DNA of 64,000 nt from Marsupella aquatica. Lineage: Eukaryota; Plantae; Marchantiophyta. Within the stretch, counting starts at the first letter, position 1, and every line of letters starts with the position of its first letter. Where the stretch lies: the NCBI GenBank assembly GCA_973895155.1, contig OZ316891.1:16290148-16354147 (forward strand). Direction: 5' to 3'. Below the pieces are notes generated by a model. It saw only the letters and a list, made by a program, of their open reading frames with translations, was not told the origin of the DNA and did no database searches. Position numbers and translations under genes: made by a program. Shown one piece after another: positions 16,406 to 60,295 of the stretch.

Positions 16406-17199
16406 CCCAGGTCAACACCGGGTCGAAGGCAGAGGCGTCCAACAACAAATGCAAAGTGAAAAAGGAACGAGAGTAAAATTATTTAGAAAGTGTCGCATTC
16501 AGCAGCCCATAACAGGGACCAAAATAACTCACCGCTGAAAGTAATACACAAGAAGAAGAAGAGGGGGTCCCACTTCAAGTCTCCAATTGTACGCAGCGTG
16601 AAAAGCGACTCTCCAAAGAGGCAAAACACAAACCAGGAGCCGGGAGCATATTCAACTTCAGCGCACAGACACACATCCAAAGGTTTGCATAAATCTCATC
16701 CGTCGACGGGAGGGAGCAGGGTAAAATGCCAGTGAGTAAGCAAAAGATTATGATGCAGTGTAAAGTAGTATCGGTATCCAGAAGGAGCATAAATCAGCAA
16801 GTAAACTGGCACCGATTCGATGATAACGCTGTAATCCAGAACTCTACGAGACGGTTAAGAAGTCGTCAAGCCCTAATGCACTTAACGCAGACCATGAGCA
16901 TCATTTAGATAACCAAAAGATGCGTTGATCAAATCAGCGCACAAAGTAAAACATCTTCCGGAGGGAAGCAACAGTGATCAGCATCCAAGCAGCGACAATG
17001 ACAGGTCAAGACGAGCCAGAGAAACTAAAAAAATCTAAAAAACCTAAAACGCAGAGCTCTGCCAGGTCTCACAGTCCATTAGGTCTCACAGTCTCTCCGG
17101 ATATTTTTGCTCTTAAAGTAGGTGTTTACAAAATACATGTGCTGGCTAACTACTTTCAAAAATGACATGTGCATAACATTGGTATCATATTTGTTTTGT

Positions 17200-37700: not shown

Positions 37701-40562
37701 CTGTTAAGGAATACCAGATTTGCTTTATCGGCTGGGGAGATCTTGAAGATGGAGGAGCTTCCATCCCTTCAGGAGGTAAAAGAAGTATTGTGGTTGCTGC
37801 CCCGGGACAAATCCCCGGGACCAGATGGATTGACAGCAGAGGTGTACAGAGCGTGTTGGGAATTCATAGGCAATGATCTTGTAGACATGATCCAGGAATT
37901 CTGGCTTTCAGGGGTTCTTGATGGTGGGATCTGTGAGGGCATCATCAAATTCATATCGAAGAAACCAGATAAACGCTACTTAAAAGACTGGAGACCACTG
38001 ACAATGTTAAATACAGTGTACAAGATCATTGCCAAGATTCTGGTGTTGCGTCTGAAACCTCTCCTCCACAAGATTATCAACCCGCAACAGACGGGATTCA
38101 TTCCTGGGCGGCACATCTTAGAAAATATTTTGCTAGCAATGCTAACATGTGATTGGGTGCAACAGAAGAAGAGCCAAGCATTATTCCTGAAGCTGGATTT
38201 TGAAAAGGCATTCGACAGGGTTTGCCATGAGTATATATGGGAGTGCATGCACCTACTTGGGATCAGTGGGCGTTTTATAATGTTGGTTAAAGCGCTGCTA
38301 GTGCAAGCAACCTCTAGGGTTTTGGTAAATGGATTTCTTTCAAACCAGGTGCACTTGGAACGTGGTGTGAGGCAGGGCTGCCCACTATCACCTCTCTTAT
38401 TTGTGATTTCCACATAGCCGCTCATGGATTTTTTGGATGCAGAGATAGTGGAAGGTAGGCTGAGAGGACTACGAATTACCGGGGATCTCATGATCTGCTA
38501 CAGGCTCTTTGCAGATGATGTAGGAATGTTCATCCCAGCAACAGAGCAGGAGTTTGAGGATGTACAAGAATGGCACTGGACTGCTATGAGAAAGCCAGCG
38601 GTGCCAAATTGAATTTAGAAAAGTTGGTGGTGATTCCCCTGGCCATGGAGAAAATTCCACTCTGGCTCACCAATACTGGATGTATTATTAGCCAGAAGGG
38701 GGAGATACAAAAGTACCTTGGAGCACCCTTAGGAGTAGAGCTGCACACAGAGCAGCTACATAAATTCTGCCTGGACAAGATAAGTACTTGACTATCGACC
38801 TGGGTAAACAAGTTGCTGTCATTCACAGGAAGAACCCTCCTGATTAAGCATATCCTGCAAGCTATTCCGATCTATCATGTGATGTACTGTAAAGCTTCAG
38901 TAGAGTTGGCTAAGAAACTGATTGCTCTTAGTAGGGACTTCTTATGGGGATACAACGCCACTGGGGGTAGGAAGATCCCCTTGGTGGCCTGGGACAGGAT
39001 AGCTCAACCACGAGTGGAGGGGGTTCTGGGTTTAAAGATTTCATAAGCCACTCTGACGCTCTTCTCTCTCAATGGTTCACAAAAGCTCTTAACTCTCCTA
39101 ACTTGGAATGGTCTAAAATGTTAGCTGCAAATCTGGCATTGATGGGATGGAGGAACTACAAAGTAATCAAAAGGAACCGATACTCCTTTCAAGACCAGTT
39201 ATTGCTGTGCACACCTAGGTCATTTGTTGGTTTGCCATACACAAGTGGACTATGGAGGAGTTGGGCGATGGTCAGAGCACACCTTTTGTTTGAGCCAGGC
39301 AGGACTGGGACACCGGCGAGATGGAGTATCTACGACACCCTGTGCTGCATGGCAGGATTTCACTCCCTCTCCAATGAAGCCATTGCAGGGATTGCTGCCA
39401 TTTGTGGAAGATTGGGTATTCACTCTATAGGAGATGGATGGTCAACTGAGGATGGAGGATGGAAAGACCTCCCACTGAGATGGCACAACCTGCGCGGATT
39501 CTCTGATGAACACAGAGAATGAGCTCAGTCCTTCCTTGAATGCCTCTGGAACACCAATGAATGTAGGGCGGACTACTTCCTCTATGCCAAACAGTGGGTT
39601 TGGTCGGACAAGGCGGAGAGGCTGCAAGACTTCAGGATTGAGAACTGTCGAGTGTATGAGTTCTTGAGGCCTAAAAGATCAAACCATGGCCGCCTAAACC
39701 GGATTTGGTCTATTTCTAGGACGGAAGTAGAATGGAACATTGGATGGGGAAAGCTCTGGCGCTTGGACTTGCCAACCAGGGGAAAGACTTTCATATGGCG
39801 TACCATTGTTGGGGGCCTCTTCACGGGGGCTAGAGCACGCAGAATTGCAGTGAGCAATGGAGAGTGCAAACTATGCTGCGGTGTGTTGGAGACCATTCCC
39901 CATGTTTTCTTTGGATGTGTTCATGCGGCTAGCTGTTGGGGACTAAGTCACCGCTTCTTACATGAGTTGGGCCTGCCAATATGACAAGGGCTGTTGACTC
40001 TGCTGGACTCTGCCCTTGGAAGAGACCCGATTCAGATTGCCAGGCTTTTTGTTTTGCACCAGTTATTATGGATGCTTTGGTTAGGTAGAAATGCCCATAT
40101 GTTCCAGGTTGATGGCAGGCGTTCTTTTGATCTTGGCCTGGTGCTGTCTGAGATGGCGGAGTGCCTGAATGCTGTGAGCTGTGGCTCACCCTCGGGTAGG
40201 AAAAACTCTCGGTTACGACGGGCAAAGGACCGGATTGACAGCCTGCGTAGGCTTTGGCTCGGTAGTGGTAGGGGATGTTTGGTCTCTAGGGGTTGACAGG
40301 GACTCCTCACTGAGGCCGGTTGGGAAGGCAGGGACCTGATAGGGTGTGTGGGGAGCAGCTCTGTTCCCTTGTGATGGCTTCTAGGGGCTGTTGCCCGTGG
40401 TTGTGTCTCATTTTCCTTTGGGCTCTTTTCTTTGACAAATGAGGTTTGTTTTGTTCTGGTTAGCTCTCTTTCTGGGCCCTTTTGGGGGGGTCTGTTTGCC
40501 GTGTGGCTTGTTTTCCCCGCCCGTGGGGTTTTTCGCGGGTGAAAACTTTTATTATAAAAAAA
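34739..40562 (+). mobile_element. 5'-truncated L1-type LINE (ORF1 partial 34796-36211; ORF2 ~36371-40296 with stops and frameshifts)
   Basis: KLPVWIEIP, CYKCNHKGHLACNC; SWNMCG, GDFN, SDHDP, LDFEKAFD, GVRQGCPLSP, FADD, zf-RVT; A tail at 40556-40562. Confidence 0.9.
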
Positions 40563-40603
40563 CCCTATTCCAAGGAAAGTTGGAACCCAATGGAGTACCA
40601 ACT

Positions 40604-43600
40604 TGTGGTGCGTCCCATGGCTCCCTAAACCCAAGAAACCCCCCAGCTCAAGCCGATTCCCGCAGGTTTCGTGCTTGGCGAGGCCGTTTCCGCAGCTTAG
40701 CGGCATGGGACGCTGCTAACCTTCTACTACTACTATTAACATTTTACACACATATACTGGACAGATCCTTCATCGGGTCATGAGATACGTAGCCGGCCTA
40801 ATATAGGCCTTCCCCTGTCTTCCCTTGTCTTCCCCTCCGTCTTGTTAGGTATGTTTGGATTCCGCCGCCGGAATGATCCCCAATAGGCTTGGTTAAGCCG
40901 CTAAGACCTCTCTCAGCTCGACACATCCAACTCTCACTCCCCTGCTTACTTTCCTTCCTTCTGTTGATGTGGGCACTCTTCACACAAGTTAATGCGACAC
41001 ACAAATAGCAAAATGACTCATTCTGACTGAGTCATACCATGCACTTGCCATACAAACAGTACATCTCATACACAAGTTCTGCGAACTAAGCCGTGAGGCC
41101 AACTCTATTCAGCTCTTAGGCATGAGGAAACATGAATATACACAAGGGTCACTGTATGACTAACCGAGAGCTTCTCGTACTACTTGATCCCAGCCCGGCT
41201 GGTGCAAACTAAAAACTTGCTAAAGAAGAGGCCCTGAGCTCCCCGCTGCCCAGGTACTTATCCTGGTAGTGGATCCGCTATTCTTTGCATCGTAAGCCTA
41301 ATCTACTTAACAGTAATCTACTTGCCCGAATCTACCTATGTACAGCAAGGCAGGAGCACAAGTGTTGCTCCTACCAGTGGGACCGCAATCCCACTAAGCT
41401 AAGTGTCAGGGCCGCTCCTGGTTCTGATCCTAATCCTAAACGTGGAGATCCGCGCCCGCCCTGCCCACTCACGCCTCCTCCCTCCACGTCCGCCCTCCCT
41501 AAAAGGAACGGCGCCCTTGCACCGTCACGACACCGGTGGTGGATCCTCAATGGACGCCCCCAACACTTCCTCCTCAGCCACTGCCGTTGGCCCGCCTACT
41601 GACAGATTACCTGCCCTTCACCGAGTCAACTCTCCATCGGCCTGACTGGGTCCACCTTCGGCTTCAGCCTCGACACCGGCCTCGGCAATACCCACGGCTT
41701 CGGCCTCAGCCACTCCCACGGCTTCGGCTTCAGCCACTCCCTCGGCTTCGGCCTCCCCTTCCCCTAGGGTAGTTGGATCCTTAGCCGTGACCCTGTCTGG
41801 GGTCGGTGCTGGGTCTACCTCCTTGATCACCACGGCCTGTGAAGTCGTATTACTCCTTGACCCTGAAGGTTTCCGCTTCTTCTTCGTTGGTGGCTCGGCA
41901 GCTGGTCCCTTCCCCTTCCCACTTACTTCCGGCACTGGTGCAGGTGGCGCGGCTTGTCCTTCGGCAATTACCACCCCTGGTAACTGGTTTGTCCCAACGG
42001 GAGATGGACCTGCTGCAGCTAAGCATTTAAATACTGCGGCTTGTTTCTTCAGCCGCTCTGTTTGGTTGTCGGCCCGCCGCTGTAGGTTCTCCATCTTCCT
42101 CGTGATTTCCTCCAACTCCTCTTGGGTTTCATCCAGGTCCTTACGTGCCCCCTCCAGCTCGTTTTTGGCCTCCTCCTGCTCCCTGTGGGCTTCCTCCAAT
42201 TCCTTCTTCAAGGTAGCCCTCTCCTCCTGGGTTGCTCTTAGCTCCTTGTCGAGCTCTGCAATGATGACAGACTCCATCTGGTTCATCTTGGCGTAAGTCT
42301 GTTCGAGCATCTCGTCCTTCTCCCTTAGGTCGGCCTTGAAGCTGGCCGTCAGGGACGCAAGCTCCTGCTGCAGCGCCATAATCCCTTGATAGGATTTCCC
42401 TAACTCGACCTCCTTCTGCTCAAGGGCTCCGCGGATTTTCTCGAGCTCCCCTTTCAACGCCCATTCCTTTCTTTGGGTCTCCGCCATGGCCCGGCTGTTG
42501 GCTGTTATGTGGGCCTCCTCTGTATTCTTCAGCTCTTGCTTCCACTTCTCCCTCTCTTTGATCGTGTCGGCCAACTCTTCCTGCGTCTGAGTCAGTTTAT
42601 CCTTGATATTCTGATTATCAGCCTGCGCGGTGTCCAACTGCCCCTGCATGATGTTCAGCTCATGTCGTTTAATCCGCAGTTCATCTTGGGCTTTCTTGGC
42701 CGCCCTTAGATCTTCAATCTCGGCTTCCATCCTCCTAAGCCGCCAAATGACCTCGTCCTTCTTGCTTCTCTCTAAAGCCACCGCTTCTTCTAATTGGTGC
42801 TTCTCCAACTGCTCCCTATGGAAAAAGGGTCCTACCTCCAACTCCTCTCCAAAGATGCCGTGCGCAAGTTCCCCACACATCTCACCATACTCCATGGCTC
42901 TATTCTTAGCGTAGGTGGAGTAAGTAGAAGTGATCGGCATCGCCCATCGTGGCCTCTGCTCCCAAGCCGTCCTGCGGATCTCTTCAATCGTGGCTAGAGG
43001 TTTGCTTCCTTTTTCGGCTAGCCGCCTGATGTCCTCCGGCCAATCTCCTCCTGGTAAATCCTTTTCCTTAGCCAAGGCGGCCTCTTCCTCCTGCTTGATT
43101 CGCTCCTGAAATTCCTGCACCATCTGTTTTATGCCGTCGAAGCTCGGGGGAGCAACATCTGGTGGGGGAGACTCAGGGCTACTCTGCTGGTTGGGGTCCC
43201 CTCGCACTACCCTTGGAAGTGTGGGGACAAACCGGCCACAGGTCCTTACTCCTGGAACGTGATGGTCCGACCCATAGCCGGAATTATCATGGCTGCAGTC
43301 CTCCACTGCCTCCTCTACCTCTTGGACGTCCGGCTTCTCCCTCTCCTCTTCCTCGGTAGGAGCTTCAGGCAATTCTGCCTCAGATTCGGAGCTTGAGGTT
43401 CCCACGTACATTCGAACACCTGGCTTGGATTCCGGCCTGATTCTCTTCTTGTCTCCAGCAAAGGGGTTTTCTCTTGTGAGCCGGTGTAGGCCTACCTCTG
43501 TAGTAGTGTCCTGCATTGTTGCCGTTGCCGTTGTTGTTGCCGATGCCGATTTCTTTTCTTTCTCCAGTAGTTTCAGCAGACTCTGCATGCCTGGTTGCTG

Positions 43601-45263
43601 CATCGGCAAGTCTTCCTTCCTGGGCCTAAACACCTGCTCGATCATAGGACTAACAGGTGGTTGAGGCTTCTCAGCCAACGGCCTCGGCGTTGGAGCTTCC
43701 TCCGGTGCCCTTACCTGCAGGGGAAGTACCGGGGCAAAAGTCTGACTTCTGGCATACCGGCACAACAGCGGCATGTGATAGCCAAGCCGCGACACGCTCC
43801 CCATGCCGATTACCTGCTACTCCTCCTTTAAGATCTTCTTCAATTGGTTGAGGAGGTACCCGTTGTAGTCCCGGCTTGGGTCTGGCCTTTCTGCCAGATA
43901 GACCTGTGCCTTGCCGATCTCTGCCCTCGGCAAGTTACAATGCATGGTCACCCGCAAGAAGTCGATCATCTCTCCTATGTGCGGGTTGGTGCAGGTGTTC
44001 CGGAAGAAGCCATTCTTCGTTGATGGCCCGGGGAACGACCGGAACTCCTTGTCAGGCAAGGTCTTCCTGGTATCAACTTTGGTCTTATTGCCTATCGGCA
44101 AGCCAAACACTTCGGCAATTACCTTGGGAGTAAGATAGAAATCCTTCCCATATATCCTCGTGCAATTGGTCTCGGGTTCCCATGACCCCACGAATTCTAA
44201 TAGGTCTGACTCCGGTACCTCCGGCTTCAGCCATGGTAATCTTACAAAGGCCTCCAAGCCGGATCCGGCCATGAAGCCTTGGTACTTCTTGGTCTGCATG
44301 GCCGTAAAGCATGCATCCTCCTCCCGTGCAAAATGTAGTTGCACCTCCACCGGTAGGGTTGCCGCCCAGCCCTTCCAGGTGTCATCCCTGGTTGGAATGG
44401 CCTTGATGGGATCGACCTCCTCCTCTTCGGCTTCTCCCTGCCTCCTGCTTTGCTGCTCGGCTGGCTTCTTTGGTGCCGCCGACCTTGTTCTTTTTGCCGG
44501 GGTGGCTTCATCGTTGACGGCTCCCTTCCTCTTCATCTCTGCTGCCGTGGAGGTTTCTCCTAGCACCGTTGCCTGGGTCCACCTTTTCGTGCTACCCTTT
44601 AATTCCCAGTGTATGTCGTTGCAGTTCTTGATGGCCTCTCGGATGCCGACGACGCTGTCTTTGCAAAACAGAAGATCGTCGAGTTGATTGGAAGTAGGCG
44701 TCCACAGGAACTCGTCCTTGATGAGTTCGCCTCCTAAGAAAGCCGTCTTCTGCAGCTCCCACAATCGAGCGAGCTCCTGCCGTTCTCGAGCTGCCCTTTT
44801 TGACTCCTCGTCCTCGTAAGTCTTGATATACTCAGTTGCCCGTTCGAACAGGCATCCCCAGAAATGTGCCGCTTGATTGACGTTGCTCATACCCTCCTTA
44901 GGTCGATCGTCGGTATCTATTCTCTCCCCGAGTGCTTGCCTAAGCAGCTGACAGTAGTTGGCCTCCCGTAGTCGTCTGCCTAGTTCGTGCTCGCAAATGA
45001 GCCACCATCTCCTGCAAGCGCTCCTTACCCCTCTCCTCTGCCGGTCCTTCTTCCCGTTGATCCTTCCTAGCCGCCGACGCTTAACGCGCCCTAACCCTAA
45101 TCGGGTTTTCACCCTTAGCCTTACCTCCGGCCTCGGCCCGGGTTCCATGGTTGCCCCTAATTGTTCATATTTTCCTTGTTTTGTCACTATACTAAGGTGT
45201 TCCTAGGGTGCCTTCCTGCTTTACCCACTTAACCGGCCGAGTGATTCCTGTCTAGGCATCACA
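40604..45263 (-). repeat. 3' LTR (4660 bp)
   Basis: Near-identical to 51472-56121 apart from one 10-bp indel and roughly 14 substitutions counted by eye; preceded by the PPT. Confidence 0.97.
41618..45187 (-). pseudogene. LTR-encoded ~1180-aa protein (Athila-ORF1/Transposase_32-like core plus long coiled coil), 3' LTR copy; one CAG>TAG at 43817
   Basis: ORFs 43817-45187 and 41618-43804 are in one frame. First ATG at 45148 in ACCATGG context. The other LTR has Q at this stop. Confidence 0.85.
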
Positions 45264-48200
45264 TAGCTCCCCACTTAATTGTGAAGCGTCCTCGCGAACA
45301 ACTTCATCTTCGTCCATATAGTATTTCTTGAGGCGGTCATAATGGATGCGAACTGGATATACCTCTCCCGTAATGTTGGCCAATTGTACGGAGCCATTGG
45401 GGAACATCATGGTTACTCTAAAGGGTCCTAACCAGCGAGTGTAAAGCTTTCCTGGAAACCTACTATACCTATTGTCATAAAGTAGCACAAGATCACCGGT
45501 ATGAATACTAACTACTTTTAACCTTTTATCATACTGCTGCTTCATGATATTCTGTCTATATTCTACTCTCTCGGCTGAAATCATTCTCGCTTCCTCTAAA
45601 GCTTCTAACCTATATTCTCGCTCCTTTAGGCTCTCCTCCGCTGAGGCTCTTTCCTCAATTGTAACTTGAAATGTCGGTATCTCAAGTTGCATGGGTACCA
45701 GGGCTTCTTGTCCAAAGGTTAAGAAGCCCGGTGTATGACCGGTAGTGGATTTATAGGCAAGATTGTAAGCAAAAACAGCAGCAAACAATTTATCATCCCA
45801 ATCGAGTTTGTTCTGAGCTACTGTCTTGTTCAATATCTTTCCTATGATTCCGTTTGCTCGTTCTGTCAACCCGTTTGCCTTTGGATGGTAGGGAGTAGTA
45901 GGCCTATGTTTAACTAAATACTGCTCATTTAAACGACTAATTATATCATTCAAAAAATGGGTTCCTCTATCACTAACTAATTCTAGGGGTGCTCCATACT
46001 TGGTGAAGATCTGCTCATACATGAATCTAGCCGTAGTAATTGCATCATCCTTCGTTGTTGGTCTGGCCTCTACCCATTTAGTTGCATAATCCGTAGCTAG
46101 GATTATGTACTTGTTCCGTCGAGGGTGGGTCAGTGGTTTCAGAGGTCCAATGTAATCAATACCCCACTTCTCGAATGGTGCCAGAGGTAGAATAGGGTGC
46201 AGTGGATGCCTGGTGGACGCCCTTGGTCCTCCCGCTCGTTGACAAGGATCGCATTGTTTGATAAACTGATAGACATCTTTGTGCAAGGTGGGCCACCAGT
46301 AACCGGCATTTAATATCTTCTTAGACGTGGTTACTGGGGCAAAATGTCCTCCGGCCTCCTCTCCATGCATGGCCCGTAGGACTCGTTTTACCTCTCTCTT
46401 TTCCAAACATCTTTGAATCGTGCCGTTGATTCCATGCTTGTGCAGTATGCCTTTAATGCACTGATACTGTCTGACCTTCCGCACAAAGACTGCGGCTTGC
46501 TCTCGGCTTAATCCTGGCTGTAATCTGGAAGTGCTGAGAAAATGTAAAATCTCAGGGTACCATGTACCAACTATTTCCACAATGAATAGCTCCTCGTCGG
46601 GGAATCGATCATCGATGCAATCCGTGGCAGGTTTACCTGTGATCCTTGAAAAGAAGTCGGCATTGGCATGTAACTTTCCCGGCTTGATCCTCAGCTCATA
46701 GTCAAACTCCTGTAATAGCAAAATCCATCTTGCTACTCTGCCTGTAAGGTCCGGCTTATTGACTAGGTACTTCAAACTTTCATGATCAGTATGAAAGATT
46801 ACCTTGTACCCTAGTAAATAATGTCTAAACTTTTTACAAGAATAAATGACTCCTAATGCTTCTCTTTCCATGGTAGAGTAGTTCCGTTCGGCATCGGCAA
46901 GCTGACGGCTTGCGAAGTATATGGGATGGTCCTTTCCTTTCTCATCCAACTGACTTAGTACTGAGCCAATACAGAAGCCCGAGACATCTACAAAAACATA
47001 AAAATCTTTGTTCCAGTCCGGTGCTATCATGACTGGGGCCTCTACTAACATCTGCTTCAATTCTACCACCGCTGTGACTCGTTCGGGTGTGGGTTCGAAG
47101 TCTGCTCCTGCCTTGAGCATATTGGTTAATGGTAAAGCCAGCTTGGCAAAATCCTTGATGAACCGGCGATAGTAACCAATGCATCCCAAGAAGGATCTTA
47201 CATCCTTTATGTTCGTAGGTTGCATGATATCTAGCCATACTGCTAGCTTACCTTTGTCAATCTCAATGCCCTTCCTTGATACCTTGTGACCTAGTAGCAC
47301 CCCCTCGGTTACTGCAAAAAAACATTTATCTGAGTGTAACTTGAGACCCACCTCTCTACATCTCATGAAGGTTTTCCTGAGGTATTTAGCATGTTTCGAT
47401 GCCTTCCCGAATACTGCAAAGTCATCAATGAAGATTTCCATGAACTTTCTCAAGTAATCATGAAAAATGTTCACCATTAATCGTTGGAACATAGCTGGTG
47501 CGTTGCAGAGTCCAAACGGCATACGATTGAAGACATAGATCCCCCATTCCGTGATGAAGGCCGTCTTGATTTGGTCTTCCTGCCGAATCCTGATTTGGTT
47601 ATAACCAGAGTATCCATCCATGAATGAATATAGTTCATGACTGGCTACCATGTCTAGTACCATATCAATAAACGGTAAAGGAAAATGGTCTTTTAATGTT
47701 GCTTCATTCAGCTTCCTGTAATCCTGACAAACCCGGATCTTGGGTTTACCATCGGGTCCAGCTTTCTTGGGAACTATCACAATTGGAGACACCCAGTCTG
47801 AATGCAGGACTGGAGTGATGAATCCAGCTTCCACTAGTTTGTCGATTTCTGTTTTGACCAACAGGGAATACTTCGGGTTCATCCTTCGAATTGGTTGTCG
47901 AAATGATTTGGCTCCTAACATGAGATCAATTCGATGTTCCCCTAGTGTTGGATCTACTCCCTTTAGATCTTGGTGACTCCATGCAAACACATCCTGAAAT
48001 TCAATCAATAAGTCACTGATCTCTTTCTCGAGCTCAGGTGCTAGGTTTCTCCCTAAGTTCAGTTCTCTTCCCTCTCCTAAGTCGAGCTTCCGATATTGCC
48101 GTGCTTGGATCATATTAATCTGCTTCTTCAAATTCGGGTCCAGTTCGGCTTCCAGTCTCTCTAATCTCATACCTCCATAAACTGGGATCTCGGCTGGACT

Positions 48201-48518
48201 AGCCGAGTCGGTCCCTTCCTTGGTGTCCATAGATTGTCCCCTTATCGGTCTATTCGGTTTTGAATTAGTGGTCGGCTCCCCTTCCTGCCTTGGCTCTAGA
48301 TCGTGTCTGTCCATCTCATCCACCTCTTGCTCCTGAGAGTTAGGCCGCTGTGCTCTCTCGGCTTCTAATAGGGCCTCAATTTGTTCTGCCCTCGTAATCG
48401 GCTTGTATGCCGATCCCTTGGTATTTAATTCCTTGCCGATGATCGATGGCGTTGTGGACCCCGTCGGCTCTGCCACAACGCCTGCAGAAAATCCACTGTC
48501 CCTGCTACTGCTCCCCAC
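45252..48518 (-). CDS. pol: pol: reverse transcriptase, RNase H, integrase (uninterrupted 1088-codon frame)
   Basis: WVSPIVIVPKK, DYRKLN, KDHFPLPFID, DGYSGYNQI, MPFGLCNAP, FIDD, YFASR...ERNYS, HHCC (H...GGH...CDPC), WGIDY, SDRGTHF, NGLTER, WLGPF. Confidence 0.95.
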   Translation of the reverse strand: MGSSSRDSGFSAGVVAEPTGSTTPSIIGKELNTKGSAYKPITRAEQIEALLEAERAQRPNSQEQEVDEMDRHDLEPRQEGEPTTNSKPNRPIRGQSMDTKEGTDSASPAEIPVYGGMRLERLEAELDPNLKKQINMIQARQYRKLDLGEGRELNLGRNLAPELEKEISDLLIEFQDVFAWSHQDLKGVDPTLGEHRIDLMLGAKSFRQPIRRMNPKYSLLVKTEIDKLVEAGFITPVLHSDWVSPIVIVPKKAGPDGKPKIRVCQDYRKLNEATLKDHFPLPFIDMVLDMVASHELYSFMDGYSGYNQIRIRQEDQIKTAFITEWGIYVFNRMPFGLCNAPAMFQRLMVNIFHDYLRKFMEIFIDDFAVFGKASKHAKYLRKTFMRCREVGLKLHSDKCFFAVTEGVLLGHKVSRKGIEIDKGKLAVWLDIMQPTNIKDVRSFLGCIGYYRRFIKDFAKLALPLTNMLKAGADFEPTPERVTAVVELKQMLVEAPVMIAPDWNKDFYVFVDVSGFCIGSVLSQLDEKGKDHPIYFASRQLADAERNYSTMEREALGVIYSCKKFRHYLLGYKVIFHTDHESLKYLVNKPDLTGRVARWILLLQEFDYELRIKPGKLHANADFFSRITGKPATDCIDDRFPDEELFIVEIVGTWYPEILHFLSTSRLQPGLSREQAAVFVRKVRQYQCIKGILHKHGINGTIQRCLEKREVKRVLRAMHGEEAGGHFAPVTTSKKILNAGYWWPTLHKDVYQFIKQCDPCQRAGGPRASTRHPLHPILPLAPFEKWGIDYIGPLKPLTHPRRNKYIILATDYATKWVEARPTTKDDAITTARFMYEQIFTKYGAPLELVSDRGTHFLNDIISRLNEQYLVKHRPTTPYHPKANGLTERANGIIGKILNKTVAQNKLDWDDKLFAAVFAYNLAYKSTTGHTPGFLTFGQEALVPMQLEIPTFQVTIEERASAEESLKEREYRLEALEEARMISAERVEYRQNIMKQQYDKRLKVVSIHTGDLVLLYDNRYSRFPGKLYTRWLGPFRVTMMFPNGSVQLANITGEVYPVRIHYDRLKKYYMDEDEVVREDASQLSGELCDA
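45264..45275 (-). other. Polypurine tract AGTGGGGAGCTA, inside the pol coding sequence
   Basis: Immediately precedes the TG of the 3' LTR. Confidence 0.8.
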
Positions 48519-49783
48519 TTAGCCGTTTCATCCAATTGGTCTACATCCTTTACTTCCTCCGGAATTGCAGCTAAAAAGGTGGATTCTATTGTAAAGCAGT
48601 CCTCGACCTCTTCGTCTTCTTCTTCCAAGTCACCTTCCATTGGTTCTTGCCATAATCCACTGGGGGGTACCTCTGGTCCAAAGACACCTTCTTCGGTTAG
48701 GTTAGTGAGGCATTCTAACCAACGTACTTCATCGGCTGACTCCAGTCCACTATCGTACCCATCTACTTCCCTTATGCTTTTCCTACGGTCATCCTTAGTG
48801 TCCCAGGATACCGTGATAGAGGGGGTCCCGAAAGTGAACTGCTTTTTACCCCAATCTTCTATTACCTCGGCTAGGTACAGCCATGGCCTACCAATCAATA
48901 GCCGGAATGACGTAGGATTTACCGGCTTCATTACTACATAGTTAATGCTAAAGAAGATACCTCCTATCTCTGTCTTGATGCCGGTTAACACTCCCGTCGG
49001 AATGACCTGATATCCATTGGCCATGTTCAACACTCTTCCAGTCATCTCCGGTGTTAGACCCCACCCTTTTGCTGTTGAATCAATCATAATACATACCCCT
49101 GATCCTCCATCGATGGGTACCCGTAGTAATAATTCTCCTTGAATCATTAATGGTAATGCTGGGGCTCCTTGATCTTCTTCTATCATTAGTACGTCGGATC
49201 TGGTTGCTACCTTGGGTAATCTCGGCTTGCCGAGAATAGCCTTCCTTAATTGCTTCCGGAAGTACGGGCTATTTTTCAATAGTTGACCTACTGTTGCCGA
49301 GACTCTAGATTCTAGTACATCTTTAGCCAGGTCATAGGGAACAATCGGCTTCTCTTCTGGTGGTGTTTCCGTCTTGGATTCGGCCAGTTTTGCCACGCTA
49401 GTCTCCACAGCTGTTGGGTCTTCCGAAGCAAACAATGCTTTTGCTCGTTTTACATCCTTGGCAATGGCTTCGGTATTCTCCAGGGTTTCTAATTCTCTTA
49501 GTTGTTCCTTAACACTAGCCGTAACAGAGGGGTAGAACAACTTAGGATGATCTCGATTGAAGTCGCTATCTTGTGAAGGATTGGTTTCACTGGTGGGCTC
49601 ATGGCTTACCTGTATTGCCGGAGCCCTCCCTTCTCCTTCTGTTGATGTTGACGAAGAGTCGATCCTTTCCTCCGTAACCTTCCCTTTATTTTTGGCCAGC
49701 CCATCCCACCTTTCCTTCCTTCTGGTAGATCGAGTAGAGACCCGGTAGCAATCATGATCTAAATCCTCCTCTGAGAAGGTTGA
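48425..49783 (-). CDS. Aspartic protease region
   Basis: VPIDGGSGVCIM active site, LLIGRPWL; frame open from ~49783, including YRVSTRS. Confidence 0.85.
   Translation of the reverse strand, partial: STFSEEDLDHDCYRVSTRSTRRKERWDGLAKNKGKVTEERIDSSSTSTEGEGRAPAIQVSHEPTSETNPSQDSDFNRDHPKLFYPSVTASVKEQLRELETLENTEAIAKDVKRAKALFASEDPTAVETSVAKLAESKTETPPEEKPIVPYDLAKDVLESRVSATVGQLLKNSPYFRKQLRKAILGKPRLPKVATRSDVLMIEEDQGAPALPLMIQGELLLRVPIDGGSGVCIMIDSTAKGWGLTPEMTGRVLNMANGYQVIPTGVLTGIKTEIGGIFFSINYVVMKPVNPTSFRLLIGRPWLYLAEVIEDWGKKQFTFGTPSITVSWDTKDDRRKSIREVDGYDSGLESADEVRWLECLTNLTEEGVFGPEVPPSGLWQEPMEGDLEEEDEEVEDCFTIESTFLAAIPEEVKDVDQLDETAKWGAVAGTVDFLQALWQSRRGPQRHRSSARN
48435..48494 (-). promoter_or_regulatory. Putative -1 programmed ribosomal frameshift signal between protease and RT
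   Basis: G GAT TTT (48494-48488) in the PR frame, 5-nt spacer, perfect 10-bp stem GGCGTTGTGG/CCACAACGCC; pol is in the -1 frame. Confidence 0.75.
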
Positions 49784-51402
49784 TCATCAGATGGTACGAA
49801 CTCTTCCTCGGCATCCTCTTGCCATCCTAGTTCGATGTGGTTGATTTGAACTCCTCCGGGGGTAGTACCTGGCAGTAAGATCTTGATCGGCAAAAGCTTA
49901 TGATTTGCGGCCAGGCCTGCCAACCAAGTAGGACATTGCCCTAGCATATGACCTTCCTATCGGCATCCCATACATAGCTGAGCTGGTTGTCCATCACCCT
50001 CTTTGCGTGCATTCGGGCATTCTCTAGCAAAATGGCCAGGTTGACCACAATTATAGCACGCCGCAAATCTTTGCACATTCGGCCTAGGAGGTACTGACGG
50101 GTTCTGAATAATCCGAGGATACATCTCTCCTGGATTGTTCCTTAACCCTGACCACAGAGATGCAGGTTTGTTGGATAGGTCTCGTGCTCCAGTCTCACTG
50201 ATGCCGAAAACACTATCAGCGGCATCTCCTAAAAAGTACTCTACTTCTCCCTGACATGGTCTGATCTCGGCCACATGCCGAACATGATTAGTATTAAGCT
50301 TAGGACACGCATCTTTATGGTGTCCGGTTTTATAACATAAGGCACACCATACAGAGCTATCCTCCTGTACTACCTTCTTCTTTGGTTTTACCTCTGCAAT
50401 GATAGCCTTAAGTTGCTCGGTAAGGGCTACGATGTTATCTGGTGGCTTAGCCTCCATCTTGACTTTCGTCTTCCCTCTCCTTCTGCCCTTCCTTTTCCTA
50501 GTTTTTTCTTCTTCAGAACTAGAAGATGACTCACTCTTGCTACTCCCACTATTCGAGCTTGACTTATCACTTCTAGACTTCTTGGAATGTTTCTTCTTCT
50601 TATCTTTTTTCTTATGGGGTGATCCCTCCTCTGATGAGGAACTCTCAGACTTAAGCTGTTTCTTCCGGCTTGTGATATCTGCATTAATGTATAATTGAAT
50701 ATCCTTAATTGCTTCGGCTAAAGTCTCCGGGTTCTCCTTCCTAATTGCAAAACTCATCTTCTGTGGCAAAGCATTCACCAACCATTGAAGTTGCATACCT
50801 TCAGATGCATTGGTCTTTGTACGTCTTACCAGTTTCTGAAAGCGTTGCAAGAACTTCCTGAAGGATTTGTTCTCCTTGAACCGAAGTTGTCCCAACTTCA
50901 GCACTGCTAGTTCTGAAGTTCCAATGGGTCGAAACTCCTTAACAAAGAGTGTTTTGAAGATATCCCAGATGGCTTGATCTTCCACATCTAATGCTCTGTA
51001 CCAAGGCCTAGCCTCACCCTTGAACAGGCCGGGAAGAATCTGCATCTTGATGGCCGATTCTCCATTTGCTGCAGCGGTTCCCTCGAAATCATCCAACCAT
51101 TCGTCCGGATCCTCATCTCCTCTCCCATGAAATGCCTTGTAATGTATGCGCGACCGCTGGCTCAATCTGGTCCCTGGCCTCTCGTCTGGCCGTGCCTCTG
51201 GTTCCCCCATGTCGGTTGGAGACTCACTTCTCCTTACCGACTCTTCTTCTGGTATGTCTTCTTCGACGCCACTTCCAGTTTCGGAGCTACCAGCTCTTTC
51301 TGCCCCTCTCAGTCGCTGTGTATCATGCCACCCGGCGAGCTGCTGCAGTCGAGCTCTCTCCCGTTGAATCACTCTTTCTTCCCTCGGCGTAAGGTCAGTC
51401 AT
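49759..51402 (-). pseudogene. gag: gag with three CCHC knuckles; in-frame TAG at 49957 inside the third knuckle
   Basis: FHGRGDEDPDEWLDDFE capsid motif; CALCYKTGHHKDAC, CYNCGQPGHFAREC, CMGCR*EGHMLGQC. Confidence 0.9.
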
Positions 51403-51448
51403 TACCTACGCTTCCGTTCTAACTTCATATCTCACGGCTTAAGAAATG

Positions 51449-51467
51449 CCCCCTCCATCTAGCGCCA
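51449..51467 (-). other. Primer-binding site TGGCGCTAGATGGAGGGGG
   Basis: TGG start 4 nt after the 5' LTR end; cognate tRNA not identified. Confidence 0.75.
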
Positions 51468-51471
51468 AAAA

Positions 51472-54400
51472 TGTGGTGCGTCCCATGGCTCCCTAAACCC
51501 AAGAAACCCCCCAGCTCAAGCCGATTCCCGCAGGTTTCGTGCTTGGCGAGGCCGTTTCCGCAGCTTAGCGGCATGGGACGCTGCTAACCTTCTACTACTA
51601 CTATTAACATTTTACACACATATACTGGACAGATCCTTCATCGGGTCATGAGATACGTAGCCGGCCTAATATAGGCCTTCCCCTGTCTTCCCCTCCGTCT
51701 TGTTAGGTATGTTTGGATTCCGCCGCCGGAATGATCCCCAATAGGCTTGGTTAAGCCGCTAAGACCTCTCTCAACTCGACACATCCAACTCTCACTCCCC
51801 TGCTTACTTTCCTTCCTTCTGTTGATGTGGGCACTCTTCACACAAGTTAATGCGACACACAAATAGCAAAATGACTCATTCTGACTGAGTCATACCATGC
51901 ACTTGCCATACAAACAGTACATCTCATACACAAGTTCTGCGAACTAAGCCGTGAGGCCAACTCTATTCAGCTCTTAGGCATGAGGAAACATGAATATACA
52001 CAAGGGTCACTGTATGACTAACCGAGAGCTTCTCGTACTACTTGATCCCAGCCCGGCTGGTGCAAACTAAAAACTTGCTAAAGAAGAGGCCCTGAGCTCC
52101 CCGCTGCCCAGGTACTTATCCTGGTAGTGGATCCGCCATTCTTTGCATCGTAAGCCTAATCTACTTAACAGTAATCTACTTGCCCGAATCTACCTATGTA
52201 CAGCAAGGCAGGAGCACAAGTGTTGCTCCTACCAGTGGGACCGCAATCCCACTAAGCTAAGTGTCAGGGCCGCTCCTGGTTCTGATCCTAATCCTAAACG
52301 TGGAGATCCGCGCCCGCCCTGCCCACTCACGCCTCCTCCCTCCACGTCCGCCCTCCCTAAAAGGAACGGCGCCCTTGCACCATCACGACACCGGTGGTGG
52401 ATCCTCAATGGACGCCCCCAACACTTCCTCCTCAGCCACTGCCGTTGGCCCGCCTACTGACAGATTACCTGCCCTTCACCGAGCCAACTCTCCATCGGCC
52501 TGACTGGGTCCACCTTCGGCTTCAGCCTCGACACCGGCCTCGGCAATACCCACGGCTTCGGCCTCAGCCACTCCCACGGCTTCGGCTTCAGCCACTCCCT
52601 CGGCTTCGGCCTCCCCTTCCCCTAGGGTAGTTGGATCCTTAGCCGTGACCCTGTCTGGGGTCGGTGCTGGGTCTACCTCCTTGATCACCACGGCCTGTGA
52701 AGTCGTATTACTCCTTGACCCTGAAGGTTTCCGCTTCTTCTTCGTTGGTGGCTCGGCAGCTGGTCCCTTCCCCTTCCCACTTACTTCCGGCACTGGTGCA
52801 GGTGGCGCGGCTTGTCCTTCGGCAATTACCACCCCTGGTAACTGGTTTGTCCCAACGGGAGATGGACCTGCTGCAGCTAAGCATTTAAATACTGCGGCTT
52901 GTTTCTTCAGCCGCTCTGTTTGGTTGTCGGCCCGCCGCTGTAGGTTCTCCATCTTCCTCGTGATTTCCTCCAACTCCTCTTGGGTTTCATCCAGGTCCTT
53001 ACGTGCCCCCTACAGCTCGTTTTTGGCCTCCTCCTGCTCCCTGTGGGCTTCCTCCAATTCCTTCTTCAAGGTAGCCCTCTCCTCCTGGGTTGCTCTTAGC
53101 TCCTTGTCGAGCTCTGCAATGATGACAGACTCCATCTGGTTCATCTTGGCGTAAGTCTATTCGAGCATCTCGTCCTTCTCCCTTAGGTCGGCCTTGAAGC
53201 TGGCCGTCAGGGACGCAAGCTCCTGCTGCAGCGCCATAATCCCTTGATAGGATTTCCCTAACTCGACCTCCTTCTGCTCAAGGGCTCCGCGGATTTTCTC
53301 GAGCTCCCCTTTCAACGCCCATTCCTTTCTTTGGGTCTCCGCCATGGCCCGGCTGTTGGCTGTTATGTGGGCCTCCTCTGTATTCTTCAGCTCTTGCTTC
53401 CACTTCTCCCTCTCTTTGATCGTGTCGGCCAACTCTTCCTGCGTCTGAGTCAGTTTATCCTTGATATTCTGATTATCAGCCTGCGCGGTGTCCAACTGCC
53501 CCTGCATGATGTTCAGCTCATGTCGTTTAATCCGCAGTTCATCTTGGGCTTTCTTGGCCGCCCTTAGATCTTCAATCTCGGCTTCCATCCTCCTAAGCCG
53601 CCAAATGACCTCGTCCTTCTTGCTTCTCTCTAAAGCCACCGCTTCTTCTAATTGGTGCTTCTCCAACTGCTCCCTATGGAAAAAGGGTCCTACCTCCAAC
53701 TCCTCTCCAAAGATGCCGTGCGCAAGTTCCCCACACATCTCACCATACTCCATGGCTCTATTCTTAGCGTAGGTGGAGTAAGTAGAAGTGATCGGCATCG
53801 CCCATCGTGGCCTCTGCTCCCAAGCCGTCCTGCGGATCTCTTCAATCGTGGCTAGAGGTTTGCTTCCTTTTTCGGCTAGCCGCCTGATGTCCTCCGGCCA
53901 ATCTCCTCCTGGTAAATCCTTTTCCTTAGCCAAGGCGGCCTCTTCCTCCTGCTTGATTCGCTCCTGAAATTCCTGCACCATCTGTTTTATGCCGTCGAAG
54001 CTCGGGGGAGCAACATCTGGTGGGGGAGACTCAGGGCTACTCTGCTGGTTGGGGTCCCCTCGCACTACCCTTGGAAGTGTGGGGACAAACCGGCCACAGG
54101 TCCTTACTCCTGGAACGTGATGGTCCGACCCATAGCCGGAATTATCATGGCTGCAGTCCTCCACTGCCTCCTCTACCTCTTGGACGTCCGGCTTCTCCCT
54201 CTCCTCTTCCTCGGTAGGAGCTTCAGGCAATTCTGCCTCAGATTCGGAGCTTGAGGTTCCCACGTACATTCGAACACCTGGCTTGGATTCCGGCCTGATT
54301 CTCTTCTTGTCTCCAGCAAAGGGGTTTTCTCTTGTGAGCCGGTGTAGGCCTACCTCTGTAGTAGTGTCCTGCATTGTTGCCGTTGCCGTTGTTGTTGCCG

Positions 54401-56121
54401 ATGCCGATTTCTTTTCTTTCTCCAGTAGTTTCAGCAGACTCTGCATGCCTGGTTGCTGCATCGGCAAGTCTTCCTTCCTGGGCCTAAACACCTGCTCGAT
54501 CGTAGGACTAACAGGTGGTTGAGGCTTCTCAGCCAACGGCCTCGGCGTTGGAGCTTCCTCCGGTGCCCTTACCTGCAGGGGAAGTACCGGGGCAAAAGTC
54601 TGACTTCTGGCATACCGGCACAACAGCGGCATGTGATAGCCAAGCCGCGACACGCTCCCCATGCCGATTACCTGCTGCTCCTCCTTTAAGATCTTCTTCA
54701 ATTGGTTGAGGAGGTACCCGTTGTAGTCCCGGCTTGGGTCTGGCCTTTCTGCCAGATAGACCTGTGCCTTGCCGATCTCTGCCCTCGGCAAGTTACAATG
54801 CATGGTCACCCGCAAGAAGTCGATCATCTCTCCTATGTGCGGGTTGGTGCAGGTGTTCCGGAAGAAGCCATTCTTCGTTGATGGCCCGGGGAACGACCGG
54901 AACTCCTTGTCAGGCAAGGTCTTCCTGGTATCAACTTTGGTCTTATTGCCTATCGGCAAGCCAAACACTTCGGCAATTACCTTGGGAGTAAGATAGAAAT
55001 CCTTCCCATATATCCTCGTGCAATTGGTCTCGGGTTCCCATGACCCCACGAATTCTAATAGGTCTGACTCCGGTACCTCCGGCTTCAGCCATGGTAATCT
55101 TACAAAGGCCTCCAAGCCGGATCCGGCCATGAAGCCTTGGTACTTCTTGGTCTGCATGGCCGTAAAGCATGCATCCTCCTCCCGTGCAAAATGTAGTTGC
55201 ACCTCCACCGGTAGGGTTGCCGCCCAGCCCTTCCAGGTGTCATCCCTGGTTGGAATGGCCTTGATGGGATCGACCTCCTCCTCTTCGGCTTCTCCCTGCC
55301 TCCTGCTCTGCTGCTCGGCTGGCTTCTTTGGTGCCGCCGACCTCGTTCTTTTTGCCGGGGTGGCTTCATCGTTGACGGCTCCCTTCCTCTTCATCTCTGC
55401 TGCCGTGGAGGTTTCTCCTAGCACCGTTGCCTGGGTCCACCTTTCCGTGCTACCCTTTAATTCCCAGTGTATGTCGTTGCAGTTCTTGATGGCCTCTCGG
55501 ATGCCGACGACGCTGTCTTTGCAAAACAGAAGATCGTCGAGTTGATTGGAAGTAGGCGTCCACAGGAACTCGTCCTTGATGAGTTCGCCTCCTAAGAAAG
55601 CCGTCTTCTGCAGCTCCCACAATCGAGCGAGCTCCTGCCGTTCTCGAGCTGCCCTTTCTGACTCCTCGTCCTCGTAAGTCTTGATGTACTCAGTTGCCCG
55701 TTCGAACAGGCATCCCCAGAAATGTGCCGCTTGATTGACGTTGCTCATACCCTCCTTAGGTCGATCGTCGGTATCTATTCTCTCCCCGAGTGCTTGCCTA
55801 AGCAGCTGACAGTAGTTGGCCTCCCGTAGTCGTCTGCCTAGTTCGTGCTCGCAAATGAGCCACCATCTCCTGCAAGCGCTCCTTACCCCTCTCCTCTGCC
55901 GGTCCTTCTTCCCGTTGATCCTTCCTAGCCGCCGACGCTTAACGCGCCCTAACCCTAATCGGGTTTTCACCCTTAGCCTTACCTCCGGCCTCGGCCCGGG
56001 TTCCATGGTTGCCCCTAATTGTTTATATTTTCCTTGTTTTGTCACTATACTAAGGTGTTCCTAGGGTGCCTTCCTGCTTTACCCACTTAACCGGTCGAGT
56101 GATTCCTGTCTAGGCATCACA
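51472..56121 (-). repeat. 5' LTR (4650 bp)
   Basis: Direct repeat of 40604-45263; followed by the PBS. Confidence 0.97.
52476..56045 (-). pseudogene. LTR-encoded ~1180-aa protein, 5' LTR copy; stops at 53157 and ~53010
   Basis: Same 3570-nt frame as 41618-45187. First ATG at 56006. Both stops are sense codons in the other LTR. Confidence 0.85.
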
Positions 56122-57300
56122 CAACTGGTTTTGCATTCTCCATCCCATACTTGGCAAGTACCTTCTCCTTGAAATACTACCTCTAAGATAACCATAATTG
56201 CCTTTGCTCATTGTCACGGTGAATCTCTATCCCTAGAATCTTCTTGGCCTGACCCAAGTCCTTCATTGAAAACTCCTTACTCAACATTGCTTTCAGATGA
56301 GCAACATCAACCATACTCTCAGCCAGGATTAGCATGTCATCCATGTACAGTACTAAAGTTTGAGTAATTTTCCACCTCATTATGTAAATACAACAATCAT
56401 GTTTACTCCGCGTGAACCCCTAAGACAACATGCAGAAATCAAAATGCTTATTCCACTGTCTAGGACTCTACTTCAAACCGTATAATGAGCGCAAGAGCTG
56501 ACACACCAAGTGTTTGGTCTTCTCGTCAATAATCCTAGAGGCTAAGTCATATAAATCACCACATCAAGCAATCCATGCAAGAAAGCAGTAATTACATCCA
56601 TCTGACCTAACTCAAGATCATAGAGTGTCACAATTGCAAGTAAAACACAGATAATAGTGAGCTTGACAACTGGTGTACCCTTTGGCCACAAGGCATGCCT
56701 GGCTTGTAAGTGTCATTTGGCTTCTTCTTGTACAACCATCTACATGGAACCAGTGTCTTCCCGCGAGGCATGTCCACTAAGCGCCAAGTTGAATTCTTCT
56801 TCAAAGATTTTATCTCCTTCAACGTTGTCTGCATCCACTTATCCTTCTCTAGAGAGGCCATAGCTTCTTCATAGCTAGAGGGGTCTCCATCCTCAGTGAG
56901 CAATATAATACCGAGATCATTGTTGTGCTCAACCAAGTGAACCCGAGGATCTGCAAAACCAAATCTATCAGGGGGTTGGCCAAGATTGGCCCTTGTAGAG
57001 CACCTTAATTGAGTAACTGCACCTCTACCAAAGGGTCTAGTAGCTTCCTCAACACCATCAAGCTCCATCGTAGTGGGTTACTCCACCTGCTCCTCTTGAT
57101 TATCCTGGGATCTTGACAACCATTCTTTGTCAAAAATAATATTTCTACTCACAATTGCCTTGCAATCAATAGGATCCCATAACTCATAGCCCTTCTGCCT
57201 TGGACTAAAGTCTAGAATAATACATTTCTTACACTTGGGATCCAACTTAGACCTGTGTGTCTGCTCAATGTGAACATAGGCAACACACCCAAAAACAAGG
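56122..57300 (-). mobile_element. Ty1/Copia remnant (integrase C-terminus and RT), target of the Gypsy insertion
   Basis: FGCVAYVH, KLDPK, YMDDML, FSMKDLGQAKKILGIEI; the frame continues across the TSD as ENAKPVGTPLGSNF (to ~40576). Confidence 0.85.
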
Positions 57301-58028: not shown

Positions 58029-60295
58029 TATAAATTTTGAAATTTGTTCCGCATGAACCCCACGGATGGGGGAAACAGGCAGGCCAAAATGCGGCAGACC
58101 ATCAAGGGCAGAAAAAAACACACACATCAAAGCGGTAGCATAATCCATAAGAGAGCAAGTCTGAATGTAACTAGGGATCAGACAGGGGATCCCAAGTGTC
58201 AATCCAAGTCAAAAGGAGTATTCCTAGGGATCAGAGTAATCCCAGTCTTAGGAGAACCTGAGGCAAAGTCTAAGTAGAAGCAAGATTGCCCAGTCTAGCT
58301 ACACCAAAGTGTCAACCTGTCAAAGGCAAAAAGGCAATGGAGTAGCCATGCTTCAATGAGTTGTAGTACTTTGAGTATCCCGACCTAAAATCCTAAGTTG
58401 CTCTACTTCAAGGAGAGATCTAGCCTTGGTAAGGCGTACATGCTTGTTGCTCAGGGGCGAAGCTAAAGCAACAGCATTCAGATGGTCAATAGTTTCAGAG
58501 AAAACCTGCCATGTATCAAAAGTCCTCAGTCTAGTTCTATCAAAAGTGTGCCCATTCCTAGCTAACCAGATAGACCATAAAGTCTGGAATAGAAGAAAGG
58601 TACGTAGTGTAGTCCGAGGGGCCTTCCCAGACGTGGAAGGAGTAAGCCCACAATGCTCATCCTGCCAATCACTAAAATTCCATGTATCCAGTCGCTAGTA
58701 GTGACCCAACAATGGATGGCATGCCTGCATAAAAGAAATATGTGCGGGATGGTCTCAACTATTCCCGTGCAAAGCGTACAGCAGCCATCAGATTTACCAA
58801 TTCGTAGCGCCCGTGATCCCGAGAAGAGGCCCTCCGCCAGGATCCTCCACAGAAAGGTTTTGGCTTTCGTGGAGAGATCAGCAGTCCAAACCACTTTCCA
58901 GACATAGTTCCACTCAAGCTCCGTCAGAGTCTCATGCCAAATTTGATTAAGTCTAATAAAGTTAGAGCCCTTCGGGCGGAGCATCTCGTATACCCTACTG
59001 TTAGGTATACTGAAGCGCAGGGGCACCGCCTCCTTATCAAGCCAACGCCATTGCCGAGCCACAGAGTCAAAGGCACTGCCCCGGTGTCCAGATCGAAGAA
59101 CAACATTGAGGAAGGCGAGGCCCCAGCTCTTCTCAGCACCAGAGAAGCCTCTAAATCTAAGAAGTCTATCTTCAAAGTTCCTCCAAACCCCATCCATAGG
59201 GGACCATAAATCACCAACAACTCTGACTCCTAACCTGCCACATATCTTGACAATTATGGCGAGTAGGTCTGTCTCAGCGAGATTGTAGAAGCCTATCAAA
59301 CAACGGAGCAAGTCTTCAATACCCCAATGGCCTGGAATAGCAATCTCCCCAGGAAAGAAAAGCAAATTAGCTCTTACCTCCATCCAAGAAGTCCAGATCT
59401 GACCAATGTAAATTAGTTGACCAAACGAACCGGGAGTACTGAGCAGCATCTTATCTGACATAGAATATTTGTTCCTGCGGACTGTCTTATAGTTCCTCCA
59501 TTAACTAAGTGTAGATTCTCAGCAAACAATCGGGCCCACTCAGAATACGGATGATCCAATGCACCAGTGAACCACTTACTGAGAAGAGCATTCGAATGAC
59601 TTTTGAAATCCTTCAGACCAAGCCCCCCATCAGCTTTTGGTCGGGATAATTTATCCCATGCAACCAGCGGAATACGCTTCCCTCCCTGGTCATTGGTACC
59701 CCATAAAAACAGTCTACTCAATGCTGTCAGTTTCTTGGTTAACAAATTAGGCGATCGCAAAAACATCATATGATACACGGGAATGGCCTGAAGTACATGT
59801 TTGACCAACAGTAATCTACCAGTGAAAGAGAGGAACCGCGTCGACCAGGATGAGAGTCTGGCTCCAATACGGTCTAGACAGAAGTTGTGAAGTTGACTCT
59901 CAGTCAATCCAGTGCCGAAGGGGGCTCCCAAGTATTTCTACACCGAGCCTGGTTCAGAGATCACACATCCAGTGGCGCGAAGCCAATCCGGGATCCCATC
60001 TAAAGCAATGGGTATAACAATTGACTTCCTTAGATTTAGCTTTGCTCCTGTAGCCGTCTCGTAGCAATGAATGGCAGTTCTAGCCTATTTGAAAGCCACT
60101 TCTGCGGCTAGGATGAATAAACCCAGGTCATCGGCAAAGAGACAAAAACAAATATTTAGGAATTCAGAGATCTGTATGCCTTGCAGTCTCCCAGCAGCAA
60201 TCTCCGCATTGAAAAAATCCATAAGCGGTTGTGTGGAAATAGCAAAAAGTAAAGGCGACACGGGGCAGCCCTATCTAACTCCATGAAGCATCTGT
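57997..60295 (-). mobile_element. L1-type LINE 3' half, same family as 9694-17098, ending in an (AAT)n tract
   Basis: GVR*GCPVSPLL, FADD, LGAPFG, RIGKSDGCC, shared 3' hairpin. Confidence 0.88.

Follow-up and report, generated by a model that had tools for sequence, protein, structure and literature searches.

A probable −1 frameshift signal at the protease/reverse transcriptase boundary of a Ty3/Gypsy retrotransposon from the liverwort Marsupella aquatica

A long terminal repeat (LTR) retrotransposon in Marsupella aquatica carries an overlap of its protease and reverse transcriptase (RT) frames whose layout is, by analogy, that of a plant-virus-type −1 frameshift site placed at the retroviral pro-pol position of a Ty3/Gypsy element. 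Our preferred reading, to which we assign a probability of about 0.75, is that a programmed −1 frameshift at this boundary yields abundant Gag-protease (Gag-PR) and scarce Gag-PR-RT-RH-INT. The proposal from a sequence-only reading that RT and integrase are made by programmed frameshifting appears to be supported by the frames, the signal, and its within-family conservation, and the protease/RT signal is real, conserved within the family, and probably functional.

The full-length element lies on the minus strand of the analyzed 64-kb stretch of DNA (the window), spans positions 56121-40604 (15,518 bp), and includes the protease/RT site. It is a young, full-length Ty3/Gypsy copy with a 5-bp target duplication and LTRs that are 99.5% alike (99.46% identity by self-BLAST, 15 mismatches). 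The domain order gag-protease-RT-RNase H-integrase, established with Pfam and, for the protease, by homology, is the Ty3/Gypsy order, and it is accompanied by LTRs ending in TG...CA, a target-site duplication, and a primer-binding site. The features of the element are as follows.

51472..56121, minus strand: 5′ LTR, 4,650 bp, TG...CA (self-BLAST, ends, target-site duplication)
40604..45263, minus strand: 3′ LTR, 4,660 bp (self-BLAST, ends, target-site duplication)
56122..56126, minus strand: 5-bp target-site duplication, left copy on the element strand (identical five letters at both ends)
40599..40603, minus strand: 5-bp target-site duplication, right copy on the element strand (identical five letters at both ends)
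51450..51467, minus strand: likely primer-binding site, beginning with TGG, 4 nt past the 5′ LTR (function inferred from sequence)
49957..51405, minus strand: gag ORF with Retrotrans_gag and zinc knuckle (Pfam)
48425..49783, minus strand: protease ORF, zero frame (30-44% identical to relatives in the protease region)
45252..48518, minus strand: RT-RNase H-integrase ORF, −1 frame, 1,088 codons without a stop (Pfam RVT_1, RT_RNaseH, Integrase_H2C2, rve)
52476..56060, minus strand: 1,194-codon extra frame within the 5′ LTR, with two in-frame stops
41618..45202, minus strand: 1,194-codon extra frame within the 3′ LTR, with one in-frame stop at a different place

The 64-kb window contains no tRNA gene. 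The protease ORF has no Pfam match and was assigned by homology; its active-site motif is DGG, which is common to most of the aligned relatives, the usual form being D[ST]G. The coding region of the window copy is interrupted three times, by a stop in gag (the gag ORF ends at an in-frame stop within the second zinc knuckle), by a break between gag and protease, and by the break between protease and RT.

At this last break, the sequence-only reading had described a 94-nt overlap with RT in the −1 frame, an in-phase G GAU UUU followed by a 5-nt spacer and a perfect 10-bp stem, and a loop, GCCGA (48468-48464), able to pair with a downstream UCGGC (48439-48435). All of these coordinates were confirmed, the last as a complementarity. 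The site thus combines an overlapping −1 ORF, an in-phase heptamer, and a structure within 5-9 nt downstream.

48519..48521, minus strand: stop codon that bounds the RT frame on the upstream side of the overlap (no variant listed across copies)
48488..48494, minus strand: slippery heptamer G GAU UUU (GGATTTT), in phase with the protease frame (none of its 7 positions varies)
48483..48487, minus strand: 5-nt spacer, variable in three of five letters and constant in length; holds most of an acceptor-like UGCAG
48473..48482, minus strand: stem 1, 5′ arm (1 of 10 positions varies, at 1.1-1.4%)
48448..48457, minus strand: stem 1, 3′ arm (0 of 10 positions listed as varying)
48464..48468, minus strand: possible stem 2, 5′ arm, in the loop (complementarity; the single variant retains a G-U pair)
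48435..48439, minus strand: possible stem 2, 3′ arm (complementarity; the single variant retains a G-U pair)
48425..48427, minus strand: stop codon of the zero-frame Gag-protease product, 20 codons past the slippery site (no variant listed)

Stem 1 alone has a computed folding energy of −17.2 kcal/mol over its 10 bp. Under criteria that were set after the site had been seen, this heptamer alone among the 469 of slippery type that the window has on its two strands is followed 5-9 nt downstream by a perfect stem of at least 10 bp, and 20,000 dinucleotide shuffles of the overlap returned 1,074 sequences with an in-phase heptamer, eight with a 10-bp stem, and none with both in register. The fold of the 101-nt region is only mildly unusual (z −1.98; 9 of 200 shuffles were as good), and an Rfam search gave a single chance match (E 1.3).

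A private indel in the window copy would be revealed by sibling copies in which protease and RT share a single frame. Eleven sequencing runs were available, none of them RNA, and contigs of seven runs from six studies were compared (X3, X9, X10, and X11 were left out); one of the compared runs is possibly the source of the window itself. Positions 47900-50300 were compared in X1, X5, X4, and X6 (3,164, 2,199, 103, and 23 contigs, respectively) at a 5% threshold and positions 48400-48535 in X1, X2, X7, and X8 (136, 53, 1, and 1 contigs) at a 1% threshold, with X7 and X8 each contributing one short contig of partial cover that stops short of 48425. It should be noted that contigs lose rare variants and that diverged contigs are clipped. 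Within the family, none of the seven runs yielded a copy with protease and RT in a single frame. The 191 contigs covering 48400-48535 in four runs, 59 of which are less than 90% alike, contained no indel and no joint at the 1% threshold, and none of the five indels listed for 47900-50300 in four runs at the 5% threshold falls in 48425-48518. The overlap is crossed gap-free by a single X4 contig (765 nt, with 10 differences) and by a single X6 contig (2 differences over 266 aligned nt). Together, these comparisons rule out a private indel as the origin of the protease/RT break. Three single-base deletions at 48541-48545, seen in one depth class of X1 with a net change of −3, lie above the RT-frame stop.

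The comparison has power because the same data reveal the two other lesions as private to the window copy: at 49959, the gag stop, contigs of all four runs depart from it, and length differences are seen in other copies near 49783, where gag and protease are broken apart and where no in-phase heptamer was seen. Since the gag/protease break is private, only one shift, not two, would be needed in the family. The sequence-only reading had likened the site to the pro/pol shifts of MMTV and HTLV, and the position of the shift does correspond; an MMTV/HTLV-like double frameshift, with a second shift between gag and protease, is ruled out by the private nature of that break.

The pattern of variation across copies points in the same direction. 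In 48400-48535, 17 places vary among the contigs of X1, X2, X7, and X8: 0 of 7 in the slippery site, 3 of 5 in the spacer, 1 of 20 in stem 1, 2 of 10 in stem 2, 0 of 4, 2 of 6, and 2 of 8 in the loops, 5 of 41 upstream, and 2 of 35 downstream. Reading the p-values as modest and post hoc, and the copies as related to each other, the slippery site and stem 1 vary less than unpaired positions (1 of 27 versus 9 of 33, p = 0.015), and RT-frame third positions vary in none of the six cases in stem 1 versus 6 of 11 in unpaired positions (p = 0.037). Past the heptamer, the three RT-frame codon positions hold 4, 1, and 7 changes, respectively (p about 0.05-0.07). Of 20 varying places upstream, 14 are third positions of the protease frame (p = 0.0009), and there is no third-position excess in gag (7 of 17) or in the small RT set (1 of 3), all counted among the 40 of 358 places listed. 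The overlap and its signal are retained across copies, and selection acts on the reading frames, within a scope of one family of about 80-100% DNA identity.

Conservation and covariation, which the sequence-only reading had named as a check on the signal, gave a divided answer: the slippery site and stem 1 are preferentially invariant, and no two-sided covariation was detected. The stem 1 variant at 48479 (1.1-1.4%) breaks its pair unless the partner changes; at the partner, 48451, inspection by eye shows a change in a loose end made up of two contigs, which may or may not belong to the same copies. Both of the stem 2 variants keep G-U pairs, which, as both are transitions, is weak evidence. 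A variant at 48459 (15% of the depth in X1 and 46% in X2) breaks a competing inner helix. Taken together, the data are compatible with a putative pseudoknot.

By analogy with viral sites, we infer ribosomal pausing, slippage, and a skewed product ratio. Ribosomes reading Gag-protease would be held up by the stem, which lies 5 nt ahead, at the point where GAU occupies the P site and UUU the A site. Most would continue for 20 codons and then stop, releasing Gag-PR, and a minority would slip back by one base and go on to produce Gag-PR-RT-RH-INT. Protease would then be made at the level of Gag, and RT, RNase H, and integrase alone would be rationed. In a less supported addition, the loop would pair with 48439-48435 to give a pseudoknot.

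GGAUUUU is the slippery heptamer in RCNMV (red clover necrotic mosaic virus). In PEMV, GGAUUUU with a 5-nt spacer has been tested, and mutation of the U run abolishes shifting; a 5-nt spacer is also stated for RCNMV (PMC4737148). Elsewhere, G_GAU_UUU is named as a shift site (PMC5009743), a GGAUUUU site is described as resembling that of RCNMV (PMC3169540), and the deviation of GGA from the X XXY YYZ heptamer is tolerated (PMC3542737, PMC4737148). The site described here thus resembles those of the pea enation mosaic umbravirus and the dianthoviruses, which also have GGAUUUU and a 5-nt spacer before a structure. However, the plant-virus sites have the zero-frame stop 0-3 nt past the site, whereas here it follows 20 codons on, and they are stimulated by a bulged hairpin that has a long-range partner, where the retrotransposon has a compact stem of 10 bp or a local pseudoknot. 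MMTV and HTLV likewise shift by −1 at the protease/RT boundary (PMC3542737; PMC7075266), but they use two shifts and make little protease, in contrast to the single shift and Gag-level protease proposed for this Ty3/Gypsy element.

Among named relatives, the RT is nearest to proteins of Calypogeia fissa, followed by those of Riccia and Marchantia; these are liverworts, which would fit a liverwort-like host. Related elements (metagenome loci L001-L010, the protein P0056, and the Calypogeia fissa proteins) have 54-73% RT identity and the same protease motifs and linker. In a quick tree of 58 RT rows, from which no rows were dropped, P0056 and three proteins of Calypogeia form a group with the window (SH-aLRT 99), the highest identity being 73%. 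P0056 runs from gag to RNase H in a single frame, and, among gene models, the linker with which P0058 and P0123 begin is joined to the protease tail in P0258. Protease and RT are in one protein in 31 of the 69 homologues listed, a count that the length filter favors. The linker motif directly before the slip site is also present in the single-frame Calypogeia relatives, so that the product of a shift would keep the same linear order as theirs. Because the nearest relatives in the tree have one frame, the signal would have arisen in the lineage of the window, and the −1 break is likely derived in its family. None of 20 metagenome loci has the frameshift signal of the window, and the viral and prokaryote collections contained no relatives among 61 and 142 pattern matches, respectively.

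Other relatives have stop codons where recoding may occur.

L003:178, L004:814, L006:5708, L008:935, L010:67: TAG readthrough-like sites
L001:3142, L002:1910: TGA sites between gag and protease-pol, with hairpins of −32.4 and −38.2 kcal/mol over 90 nt

At all five of the former loci, a single TAG and then CAA-YYA precede RT, at the boundary where the window has its −1 break. These loci form one clade (support 99), four come from one dataset, and the protease was seen in three; six of 292 collected proteins end at the TAG before the RT of this clade. UAG-CAR-YYA, which the clade matches, is a readthrough motif (PMC3542737), and we predict tobamovirus-type readthrough in a retrotransposon. In L001 and L002, gag is followed by a single TGA with a long hairpin and then by protease-pol in frame; L002 has the type II motif UGA-CGG, and type II readthrough is predicted for both. 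The frame breaks of L012 and L019 look like decay and lie away from the site of the window. One further protein, P0259 (106 aa, 47-56% alike), ends five residues past the place matching the slip site and is the sole match to the zero-frame tail in the protease-ORF searches (three near and three longer matches, 314 representatives), which offers only a hint of the same layout.

Three other explanations of the break were weighed. Splicing of the Ogre type is in our judgment unlikely. In that scheme, the AG at 48483-48482 would be the 3′ end of an intron whose removal places an upstream protease-frame exon in line with the RT frame, and unspliced RNA would give Gag-PR. By the 3′ splice-acceptor consensus, the slip site does have an acceptor-like context, a U-tract followed by UGCAG/G at 48483-48482. 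TGCAGG occurs here and nowhere else in the 6,151 nt of internal sequence, no variant is listed for its CAG, and pyrimidines are retained or gained in all three spacer variants, but YAG is common anyway near a slippery-site U run. Eleven upstream GT sites at 49100-48540 would join in frame, and Ogre has a spliced intron at the same boundary (PMC6317226). However, the intron from the best-matching site, 48633 (152 nt), is 22% U and 63% purine, like its coding flanks (21-24% U), it is open in the protease frame, and its removal would lose the linker motif kept in the single-frame relatives. Splicing also leaves unexplained a perfect stem with invariant silent positions.

The stem would instead be incidental if an ancestral indel had broken the frame of a now defective family that spread on the Pol of a single-frame relative. 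Trans-mobilised families are common, the nearest relatives are single-frame, and the window copy has other lesions, yet the 1,088-codon pol frame is intact, variation past the site follows the RT frame, the break is retained in copies less than 90% alike, and an in-phase heptamer with a perfect stem arose by chance in 0 of 20,000 shuffles; we consider this account improbable to a somewhat greater degree than splicing. Lowest in probability we place a Pol made separately, starting at an RT-frame AUG through reinitiation, internal initiation, or a transcript of its own, the first Met being about 68 codons in. Met codons do precede the RT core in the RT frame, but a Pol not fused to Gag would have to enter particles in some other way, and neither the open, codon-biased RT frame from the heptamer onward nor the retention of the heptamer and stem is given a reason. 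Separated ORFs do exist in plant lineages (PMC6317226).

In one survey of plant elements, a single stop separates GAG-PROT and RT in 49% of intact Retand elements, and Ogre has a spacer (35%) or a stop (14%) there; post-protease breaks take the form of a stop in Retand and Ogre or an intron in Ogre, overlaps are given only after gag, and no lineage in its table has overlapping GAG-PROT and RT frames as its prevailing form (PMC6317226). Retand and Ogre thus share with the Marsupella element an expression break between GAG-PROT and RT, but these Tat elements combine a stop or intron with an extra RNase H, whereas here Pfam found one RNase H region only and no additional RNase H of the kind in Tat (Ogre, Retand, TatI-III), including in the protease ORF. 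Selgy, Tcn1, SIRE, and animal Gypsy elements differ in that their two overlapping frames are gag and pol, with −1 shift sites in many animal elements (PMC5009743, PMC6317226); according to PMC5009743, the plant cases of a 2003 survey were +1. Phygy has a 4-bp NCGN target-site duplication, a length of 7.7-10 kb, and no extra ORF (PMC6317226), in contrast to the 5-bp duplication, 15,518 bp, and extra ORF found here; a tRNA-Trp primer is a further Phygy trait. Athila elements are recognized by RT clustering and a tRNA-Asp primer; in the quick tree, used for this comparison, the RT of the window is separate from four flowering-plant rows that carry no reference-based lineage assignment. The unnamed relatives differ as well, having one frame (P0056, Calypogeia), UAG-CAA-YYA before RT, or UGA with a hairpin after gag. 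A pro/pol split in Dictyostelium Skipper is not supported by PMC5006619, which gives it two ORFs with the protease joined to RT.

We found no description of a protease/RT −1 frameshift in a plant retrotransposon, and no such case is named in the available parts of PMC12786077, PMC11963269, and PMC5580714; subscription papers and the per-element tables of the survey may hold minority cases. Control of the Gag-to-Pol ratio in plant Gypsy elements is mostly unknown, and the survey leaves many plant Gypsy lineages unresolved, since random lesions hide the real ORF layouts (PMC6317226). Here, sibling data showed that, of the three interruptions in a single copy, two are private lesions and one is a conserved break. 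The site offers a compact, testable endogenous plant −1 signal, with neighboring clades that have predicted readthrough signals. A broader idea, for which we see the chances as evenly balanced, is that this seed-free-plant Gypsy clade is a natural recoding experiment that has swapped a single frame, a UGA-hairpin after gag, and UAG-CAR-YYA after protease, and in which the family of the window newly evolved a plant-virus-type −1 pseudoknot after protease, the first pro-pol frameshift in a plant retrotransposon. If true, recoding mechanisms swap quickly within one lineage, and annotation tools score functional elements as broken.

The extra frame within the LTRs has a long coiled-coil-like part and no Pfam family at the cut-off; placement of an extra ORF inside the LTR itself is an unusual arrangement. 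Its residues 150-420 resemble unnamed clusters (0.92), with weaker leads (<0.9) to Transposase_32 and ATHILA ORF clusters. Long extra ORFs also follow integrase at L004:4213-6447, L007:3064-4986, L009:3622-5292, and L013:3080-4975, and that of L009 is 23% alike to the LTR frame of the window over about 150 residues. Two more pieces of the same LTR, 84-90% alike, lie at 5872-7354, which starts at the same LTR boundary, and at 60296-64000. The window further holds three partly decayed copies or pieces of L1-type LINEs, at 10410-16411 (minus strand), 34769-39984 (plus strand), and 58562-59937 (minus strand), with DUF4283, endonuclease, RT, and zf-RVT domains; a pyrimidine-rich tandem array of 18-19-nt units at 17534-18917; and a 195-nt tandem duplication at 23861-24255. 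Four consecutive open frames of 170-268 codons occupy 1518-5337 on the plus strand, and the two that were scanned had no Pfam match.
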